Source: Spirochaetia bacterium (GTDB lineage: Bacteria; Spirochaetota; Spirochaetia; CAKZLE01). Taken from it: DNA of 64,000 nt. This document shows positions 4,489 through 12,702 of the stretch, piece after piece. Location of the stretch: the NCBI GenBank assembly GCA_963677595.1, contig OY782041.1, positions 864,001 through 928,000 of the forward strand, given 5' to 3'. The translations under genes were made by a program, and so were the position numbers. Below the pieces are notes generated by a model that saw nothing but the letters and a program-made list of their open reading frames with translations, was not told the origin of the DNA and ran no database searches. The first letter of the stretch is position 1. Each line of letters opens with the position of its first letter.

Positions 4489-4671
4489 ACATCACTCCTT
4501 TGGGCAGATCGTCAGGATCGCGATCCATCCGATTCGCCATGGAAGTTTTTCATTCATACTCACACCATCAATATAGTCAGTAATCACGAAAAAACAAAAA
4601 ACTTCTTCTCAGTGGAAAGGAATCCCTTGTGGAGTTCCTCCCTCTTACATACCTAGGACGATGACAGCTTC

Positions 4672-10619: not shown

Positions 10620-12135
<1,516 letters not shown>

Positions 12136-12221
12136 ACTCAACTCCTTTACGCATTGTCTCTCATGCTTTAAACATTCATGAACAGGGAGTGCCATGCCCT
12201 CACCACCCATGATATACGATT

Positions 12222-12258
12222 CCTAGGAGAGATGCATCAACAGACACCACTCCCTAGG
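12222..12258 (-). promoter_or_regulatory. Candidate attenuator hairpin downstream of the ilv-leu leader peptide
   Basis: Minus strand CCTAGGGAGTGGTGTC...GATGCATCTCTCCTAGG imperfect stem about 35 nt after the leader stop; lacks a U tract. Confidence 0.55.
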
Positions 12259-12291
12259 CCTTTTATCACTGACCTTTGGCTACGGTAAGCA

Positions 12292-12543
12292 CTATAGGCT
12301 GATAATTACGAGGTTAATAAGGGTAATAAGAATTACTAGAACGGGCAGAAGTACAATCACGGGAGTGACTGCAGATAGTATCAGGGAGATACTCACGACA
12401 GAGAGGAGGAGAAGAAGGGATACGATTAAGAACGCCTTGAAAGATTCGGGTTGTTGTCCTGTTTGCTCAGACCGCTTCGCCATCCAGTCACTGTATGAGG
12501 GACGACGACTCGTGCGGGAGCAATTCTCCATACACATTGTCAT
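12292..12543 (-). CDS. Putative ilv-leu operon leader peptide (83 aa, Ile/Leu/Val-rich C-terminal half)
   Basis: 33 of the last 45 codons are Ile/Leu/Val, many of them rare (CTA, TTA, ATA, GTA, ATT, CTT); AGAGGT RBS; lies between the promoter and ilvN. Confidence 0.78.
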   Translation of the reverse strand: MTMCMENCSRTSRRPSYSDWMAKRSEQTGQQPESFKAFLIVSLLLLLSVVSISLILSAVTPVIVLLPVLVILITLINLVIISL

Positions 12544-12573
12544 AATATACCTCTGTATATACGTATTTGTCTT

Positions 12574-12602
12574 AATGTATAACCCTGCGGTGAGATAGTC
12601 AA
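12574..12602 (-). promoter_or_regulatory. Sigma70 promoter of the leader/ilv-leu operon
   Basis: Minus strand TTGACT-N17-TACATT. Confidence 0.6.
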
Positions 12603-12702
12603 GAAGCATCATGAATTTTATCAGTATATTTCCTGCATAAATATTACCCTTTTTGCATAATTCATATTGCTAATCTTAATCCCGTGCTTTATGCTCCTGA
12701 CT

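Follow-up and report, generated by a model that had tools for sequence, protein, structure and literature searches.

A long Ile/Leu/Val-rich leader upstream of ilvN in Spirochaetia, a predicted attenuator without a U-tailed terminator

The ilvN operon and its leader ORF

The window, the whole 64,000-nucleotide stretch of DNA analyzed here, carries a branched-chain amino acid (BCAA) operon on its minus strand, where all features described below also lie. The first gene of the operon is ilvN, encoding the acetolactate synthase small subunit (11620..12135; over the cut-off for TIGR00119 and NF008864), with the Shine-Dalgarno (SD) sequence AAAGGAG at 12142..12148. It is followed in order by ilvC (11615-10620), leuA (10543-9026), the citramalate synthase gene cimA (9029-7461), leuB (7419-6349), ilvD (6336-4672) and ilvB (4488-2794), each over its NCBIfam cut-off, and aroA is divergent. 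The presence of cimA in the operon implies that Ile would be made independently of threonine. The 183-nt gap between ilvD and ilvB (4489-4671) contains a hairpin and a U-rich run, together with an ORF of 21 codons (four Ile, two Leu) that ends at the ilvB SD; this gap is not conserved, measuring less than 45 nt in the three relatives read out of five fetched. The hairpin at the end of the operon, after ilvB, is U-less. A leuC/leuD-like pair is located far from the operon in the host genome (G000:C1:2607912-2610400, minus strand), behind an ORF that by eye resembles an XRE-cupin regulator; in the relatives G016, G102 and G458 the leuC-like gene is instead found some 5 kb (approximate) 3' of ilvN.

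Between a promoter and ilvN lies an ORF of 83 aa (12543-12292, from ATG at 12543 to TAG at 12292). Its SD sequence AGAGGT (12554-12549), 5 nt before the ATG, was invariant in the six leaders from its own family. A sigma70-type promoter, TTGACT-17-TACATT, was identified at 12602-12574 (-35 box 12602-12597, -10 box 12579-12574). An earlier note on this DNA had placed a promoter before the leader; the window site by itself is not above chance (2 sites versus 1.5 ± 1.2), and the proposal is upheld by a matching promoter at a median of 64 nt 5' of the start in 76 of 86 homologues, a raw count that carries no shuffle baseline. Gene callers have been misled by the leader, which was entered as a hydrophobic hypothetical protein; the entered protein is a 106-aa form that begins at an in-frame upstream ATG (12612) lying 5' of the -35 box.

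The ORF falls into two parts. Codons 1-38 (12430..12543) form a polar 'runway' with zero Ile, Leu or Val codons, and codons 39-83 (12295..12429) form a pyrimidine-rich, G-poor regulatory tract (41 C, 16 G) that is a candidate loading site for Rho. The last 45 codons comprise 15 Leu, 9 Ile, 9 Val, 6 Ser, 2 Thr, 2 Pro, 1 Ala and 1 Asn, so that the Ile/Leu/Val counts given in the earlier note, together with its 83-aa length and ribosome-binding site, are exact. When all stop-free 45-codon windows in the six frames of the 4.33-Mb genome were compared, 33 Ile/Leu/Val codons out of 45 was the genome maximum, and the runner-up frame reached 31. The same note had described these codons as often rare in neighboring genes, and this was also borne out: 19 of the 33 are CTA, TTA, ATA, GTA, ATT or CTT, codons seldom used in the operon (CTA 0%, ATT 3%), and the remaining 14 are CTC, ATC, GTC, CTG, GTG or GTT. 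The stop codon TAG (12292..12294) follows the rare Leu codon CTA, and CTA or CTC was the last codon in 60 of 70 long-type leaders (defined below). The scarcity of Thr in the tract fits threonine-independent Ile synthesis via cimA.

Degenerate half sites resembling an ARG box lie 5' of the promoter (12632..12669). The window copy scores poorly (1.6 bits); among the 86 homologous upstream regions, 43 contain an ARG-box-like site of at least 10 bits, compared with 0.6% of shuffles. In the window and in the relatives these half sites lie 30-70 nt above the -35 box. The host genome has an argR-like gene just under the cut-off, and palindromic boxes were seen in it before ORFs read by eye as argG, argC, carA and gltB. 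These ARG-box-like sites might provide the ilv operon with a further layer of control, at the DNA level.

The leader is conserved directly upstream of ilvN

To examine the distribution of the leader, the regions 5' of ilvN were examined at 100 genome loci, 80 metagenome loci and 79 loci from targeted family and order searches. Left out of the last 79 were 10 duplicates, L240 (no upstream DNA), L241 (an internal second ilvN) and L256 (no leader). The curated set contained 86 homologous leaders from the Spirochaetia families f1, f12, f19, f20 and f25, all located directly 5' of ilvN. The best-sampled picture came from f12, where ilvN was found in 132 of 201 genomes; 71 of these loci were read and a leader was present in 70. 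Just 3 leaders were found in the 80 metagenome loci, most of which are non-spirochaete ilvN genes. One locus recorded as Sphaerochaetaceae (L031) was placed inside f12 on a tree of IlvN and IlvC. Leader length ranged from 20 to 86 codons and the frame was always kept. Sixteen leaders of 20-30 aa, those of genera g45 and g103, are referred to below as short; the other 70 (69 of 38-86 aa and one of 31 aa) are referred to as long-type. As kin are not independent, the pooled leader counts in this study overstate significance.

When 401 genomes of the class were searched with a leader profile, 25 matches reached E ≤ 0.01. Those at E < 1e-3 (14 in number), and one more at 0.0025, were all before ilvN; the other 10 weak ones were elsewhere. 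The leader is thus not a sequence conserved away from ilv genes. A covariance model of the f12 element found one copy each in G016 and G414 and none in G000, G458 or G244; the leader RNA is too diverged across groups, so that one covariance model is insufficient. No Rfam model matched at its gathering score in eight loci, nor at E ≤ 5 in the window, and no Pfam or NCBIfam family was matched by the leader. A comparative attenuator survey reportedly published in 2010 by Lopatovskaya, Seliverstov and Lyubetsky may list these ORFs. No report of the element was found in a search of openly accessible papers; the supplementary leader-gene tables of PMC4833913, which include Spirochaetales, may list such ORFs.

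L256 (genome G509), a g45 locus, has a promoter directly before ilvN and neither leader ORF nor switch, and the attenuator appears to have been lost. The 205-nt spacer of L027 (2796-3000) holds a short tandem-like repeat between hairpin H2 (described below) and the ilvN SD. One contig from a sequencing run spans the region and differs at one leader position, within the 5' arm of H2, where pairing is preserved; that run may be the source sample and was given no weight as evidence.

The leader ORF is very likely translated and biased to starvation-sensitive codons

The three reading frames were compared over the opening 25 codons of every leader of at least 55 aa (46 leaders). These 1150 codons include 36 for Ile, Leu or Val in frame, compared with 190 and 191 in the other two frames. 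This in-frame purge of Ile/Leu/Val from the N-terminal extension makes it very likely that the leader ORF is translated. Met was four to six times commoner in frame (90) than off frame (15 and 20) in the extensions. We take this enrichment, and that of Phe, to be a by-product of purging Ile/Leu/Val from NTN codons; it could also represent a Met signal. A Cys motif in the extension was dropped as not clearly selected (59 in frame versus 53 and 21 off frame).

Codon usage in the final 30 codons of each of the 70 long-type leaders was compared with that of their own ilvN genes. Among Leu codons, CTA made up 27% in the leaders versus 4% in ilvN, CTG 4% versus 29%, and TTG 2% versus 16%. Among Val codons, GTA accounted for 60% versus 17% and GTG for 5% versus 29%, and ATT made up 74% of Ile codons in the leaders compared with 32% in ilvN. 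The Leu codons CTA, CTT and CTC are described as starvation-sensitive in E. coli, and CTG, TTA and TTG as robust, in bioRxiv 10.1101/492207 and PMC1183508. The Leu-codon bias of the leaders would match this hierarchy, on the assumption that it carries over to spirochaetes. The leader is an ORF with a ribosome-binding site, located between a promoter and the first biosynthetic gene, in which codons for the end products of the pathway cluster near the stop and appear biased to those that respond to starvation.

Two mutually exclusive hairpins are predicted after the leader stop

Folding of the spacer predicted two competing structures downstream of the leader stop. H1, an antiterminator-like fold (12245..12287; -11.4 kcal/mol), begins 5 nt past the stop and takes up the 5' arm of H2. 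H2, the predicted OFF structure, is the CCTAGG-closed hairpin of the earlier note (12222..12258), which is real at -19 kcal/mol and has a tail of mixed A and U with 3 U in 9 nt. A further predicted hairpin, H3 (12176..12212), lies between H2 and the ilvN SD. Competition between an H1 that starts no more than 9 nt past the stop and a stronger H2 was found in 73 of 86 spacers, compared with 122 of 430 dinucleotide shuffles. In an alignment of 30 f12 leaders, H2 showed covariation, with 24 cells changed on both sides, and 0 of 500 shuffles scored as high. The alignment of regions upstream of ilvN proposed in the earlier note thus revealed both an Ile/Leu/Val leader, kept at the 86 loci, and a covarying hairpin. 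The H1 core (CCACGG/CCGUGG) was paired at all six core pairs in every row of the same alignment; despite this conservation, H1 showed no covariation above shuffles in the f12 leaders. H1 is also weaker in the window than in most relatives. These analyses point to a pair of mutually exclusive hairpins, the first of which a ribosome at the stop could cover, with the qualification that H1 does not covary and is weak in the window.

The form of H2 varies. In f19 and in some of the f12 leaders its stem is long and irregular, and in groups g92 and g164 H2 is short. It ends 40-130 nt 5' of the ilvN SD. The pairing of the leader end (AGCCTA) with the TAGG arm put forward in the earlier note did not hold up: it amounts to no more than 4 bp and differs from the predicted fold, and the conserved switch is H1 versus H2. 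AGCCTA itself is found at the end of 5 of 6 leaders of the window's own family and is absent from other families. A pause hairpin in the N-terminal extension, convincing by eye, does not rise above dinucleotide shuffles in the window (folding z -0.4); over 47 leaders the folding z of the extension had a mean of -0.8, with 12 of 47 at or below -1.5. A GCAC motif recurs 15-30 nt 5' of the ilvN SD in f12 leaders such as L008, L126, L213 and L219 and could pair with a GGUGC bulge in H2.

A U-tailed form is nested among U-less forms

There is no terminator-like U tract after H2 in the window. A strict scan for a hairpin plus U run flagged 20 of the 86 leaders, namely the 16 short ones and four long ones; a looser terminator scan that flagged 48 of 86 was dropped as too permissive. 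All 16 short leaders share the H1 core and have a GC-rich terminator with a U run, and in these g45 and g103 leaders that core serves as antiterminator in an attenuator of textbook U-tailed form. Of the long-type leaders, 66 fail the hairpin-plus-U test. On our reading of the four that were flagged, L229 and L231 have U runs inside an arm of H2, L127 has one in a downstream loop, and L207 looks genuine. The tails of H2 contain a mean of 2.6 U per 9 nt in the long type versus 6.4 in the U-tailed form. Because the long form fails the U-tract requirement, we do not file it as a classical member of its class.

The history of the two forms was examined on a tree of IlvN and IlvC, built by a quick method from 85 rows with the root set on f1 and with L111 omitted as incomplete. 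The 16 short forms group in a single clade (SH-aLRT 97) surrounded by U-less forms, and f1, f19, f20 and f25 lie outside it. Given the root placed on f1, the U-tailed form would be derived. Leader length and the U tail change together once on the tree, and a test of independent pairs was uninformative. Terminator style genome-wide did not differ between genomes with short-type and long-type leaders, in small samples of 28-79 ends each. The host genome also holds two attenuators of classical form. One precedes hisG (G000:C1, about 1159395-1159540, minus strand; 17-aa leader with four His) and the other precedes trpE (2714860-2715028, plus strand; 19-22-aa leader with two Trp); each has a GC hairpin and a perfect U tract.

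A model for attenuation and its alternatives

Taken together, these sequence data suggest that the leader is a BCAA-sensing, ribosome-mediated attenuator, a reading to which we assign a probability of about 0.93. The earlier note's view of an attenuator that lacks a U tract and encodes a long leader peptide, extended by polar residues at the N terminus, is retained, with the addition that such leaders are kept only in front of ilvN. The order of events would be as follows. A ribosome crosses 38 codons free of Ile/Leu/Val and then 45 codons dense in them, an order that can be read from the ORF itself. When charged Ile, Leu and Val tRNAs are plentiful, the ribosome would reach the stop and cover the first 9 nt or so beyond it, blocking H1 and allowing H2 to form; this step follows established attenuator logic. 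H2 would then hold RNA polymerase, the ribosome would leave, and Rho might load on the emptied G-poor, C/U-rich tract and bring about termination before ilvN, which is the weakest step of the model. Under shortage, stalled ribosomes would shield the tract, H1 would replace H2 and the operon would be transcribed. We consider it probable that the output of the leader is premature transcription termination.

Rho may well be needed for this termination, as the predicted stop hairpin has no U run, and assistance by Rho is our leading reading, at a little short of even odds. A further proposal, which we regard as more tentative, is that one stretch of RNA may do two jobs, as an Ile/Leu/Val sensor when read and as a Rho loading site when empty; this arrangement would be ancestral in at least four Spirochaetia families, with one turn to the short U-tailed form using the same antiterminator. 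Such a dual tract would explain why the leader is two to three times longer than any classical ilv leader. An optimal Rho utilization (rut) site spans 60-90 nt, with more C than G and weak structure, and the rut of cruR lies within its uORF, according to PMC12360218. Of the 70 long leaders, 50 contain a C-rich, G-poor segment of at least 60 nt; none of the 16 short ones does, and their length alone leaves no room for one. G was avoided at non-regulatory fourfold sites (5% versus 22%). Compared with synonymous recodings, the window tract is low in G (P = 0.008), lower in C (41 versus 48.0) and ordinary in folding energy. Its C-rich segment measures 57 nt, and 20 of 108 membrane-segment controls equal or better it. 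Third-position C is above background in 13 of 25 genus-level groups only, and eight leaders (seven g164 leaders of 39-40 aa and the 31-aa L009) have neither a U tract nor a long C-rich segment. The rho gene is present in the host genome and in 78 of 80 relatives with both leader types, and does not discriminate between them.

The same H1/H2 switch might instead terminate transcription at a U-poor H2 without Rho, through polymerase alone or with NusA or NusG, and the long leader would then be a timing runway or neutral growth; we regard this as less likely than Rho-assisted termination, though a serious contender. Gene ends speak for it. At the first 120 of 202 convergent gene ends in the host genome, a strong hairpin was present at 84 and was accompanied by at least 5 U in 8 nt at 13; U-poor hairpins are thus the norm there, and H2 may be the usual terminator of the lineage. 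Strong gene-end hairpins with 6 U in 9 nt are likewise a minority in five genomes (5/44 in the host; 3/12, 3/20, 6/18 and 5/17 in the others), and the operon's own end hairpin is of the U-less kind. Such gene-end hairpins may, however, merely protect ends made by Rho. The A/U-rich H2 tail of the window and the absence of a long C-rich segment from g164 and L009 also favor termination without Rho, whereas the GC-rich H2 tails of many f12 leaders and the perfect U tracts of the host his and trp attenuators argue against it. So does the behavior of purified mycobacterial systems, in which RNA polymerase did not terminate at U-less hairpins, even with NusA and NusG (PMC3993855). Alternatively the output could be post-transcriptional, either as a switch in ilvN translation initiation (with downstream Rho polarity), as the earlier note had entertained, or with H2 as a ribonuclease III-type processing site that destabilizes the message. 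This appears rather unlikely. It would account for the missing U tract and for the long, irregular H2 of f19 and part of f12, and in mycobacteria, amino-acid-rich uORFs are known to attenuate translation (PMC13236596, PMC1262725). Against it, the ON fold does not expose the ilvN SD: the mean unpaired fraction was 0.44 with H1 and 0.49 with H2, among 68 long leaders the ON fold made the SD more open in only 5 and less open in 10, and the window values (0.35 versus 0.71) run in the wrong direction. The distance from H2 to the SD (40-130 nt), the shortness of H2 in g92 and g164, and a sister form that is a transcription terminator also tell against a post-transcriptional output.

The earlier note further suggested that the hydrophobic product might have a role in the membrane, and the peptide could in principle have a job of its own, for example as a small tail-anchored membrane protein, with regulation secondary or absent. 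Its 45 mostly hydrophobic residues, its listing as a protein by gene callers, and pN/pS values below 1 in 15 close pairs (extension 0.51, tract 0.40, compared with 0.08 in ilvN) are in keeping with this idea. Synonymous sites are constrained too, however (pS 0.26-0.32 in the leader versus 0.52 in ilvN), and the two measures together fit composition and RNA constraints, not a folded protein. Compared with 298 membrane segments from the same genome, the tract is nearly devoid of Gly (0.6 versus 5.7%), Phe (0.8 versus 4.1%), Trp (0 versus 0.7%) and Met (0.3 versus 2.2%). The occurrence of the leader only before ilvN, its variation in length from 20 to 86 aa, the want of a Pfam or NCBIfam family, and nine non-self protein matches that are all leader-type sequences likewise argue against a peptide function, which we judge very improbable. 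The chance that the ORF is an accident of pyrimidine-rich intergenic DNA is negligible: shadow frames elsewhere in the genome do reach 31 Ile/Leu/Val of 45, but 86 leaders of varied length share the frame, SD, promoter spacing, Ile/Leu/Val tract and position of the stop, which refutes it.

Comparison with known attenuators

The E. coli leaders ilvL, ivbL and leuL are about 28-32 aa. The uORF of Corynebacterium ilvB-II (15-17 aa; PMC10272879), the leader of S. aureus ilvD (26 aa; PMC5794164) and the uORF of M. tuberculosis ilvB1 (PMC13236596) are each coupled to an intrinsic terminator, and in the last a ribosome at the stop is described as blocking the antiterminator. The spirochaete leader resembles such classical BCAA attenuators in having a short Ile/Leu/Val-rich ORF before a BCAA operon, rare Leu codons of the starvation-sensitive kind, and an antiterminator that would be blocked by a ribosome at the stop, and the g45 and g103 relatives are outright members of the class. 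It differs in its length (83 aa; 38-86 aa in the long type), its extension free of Ile/Leu/Val, its 33 regulatory codons, an OFF hairpin that no U tract follows, and an operon that begins with ilvN.

Another related group consists of uORFs linked to Rho. In tnaC, speFL, mgtL, corL and Bordetella cruR a uORF is likewise found with no intrinsic terminator, and the position of the ribosome decides the outcome; in mgtL and corL, uORF translation is coupled to refolding and polymerase pausing. These systems sense free Trp, ornithine, Mg or Cu, mostly by arrest peptides, unlike the spirochaete leader, for which Rho is a prediction. The only amino-acid biosynthetic uORF that we noticed in Table 2 of PMC12360218, the source for these systems, is his, for which Rho may act in addition to an intrinsic terminator. 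The actinobacterial cys leaders and the leuA LEU element are also amino-acid-rich leaders of biosynthetic genes without an intrinsic terminator, and Rho was proposed for the cys leaders (PMC1262725); those of mycobacteria were later shown to act on translation (PMC13236596). The actinobacterial leaders are short, cys without a conserved terminator-like hairpin and leuA acting by a pseudoknot (PMC1262725), and the spirochaete leader differs from them in the covarying H2 of its hairpin pair and in its U-tailed sister form. The Leptospira ilvB motif and the ilvB-OMG motif are BCAA-rich uORFs that precede ilvB; one of the two occurs in a spirochaete genus, and both are predictions only (PMC8632094, PMC10272879). 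The ilvN leader has another gene context and no Rfam match. Mapping of 3' ends in Borrelia revealed both types of termination in a spirochaete (PMC10319736).

One family contains a natural pair of leader forms, with a shared antiterminator and with or without a U-tailed terminator. This pair makes two ideas directly testable, namely that U-less hairpins could serve as regulated terminators and that Rho could execute classical tRNA-sensing attenuation of a biosynthetic operon. If the dual use of the tract by the ribosome and Rho is correct, both ends of a change between Rho-dependent and intrinsic attenuation would survive side by side in one family.
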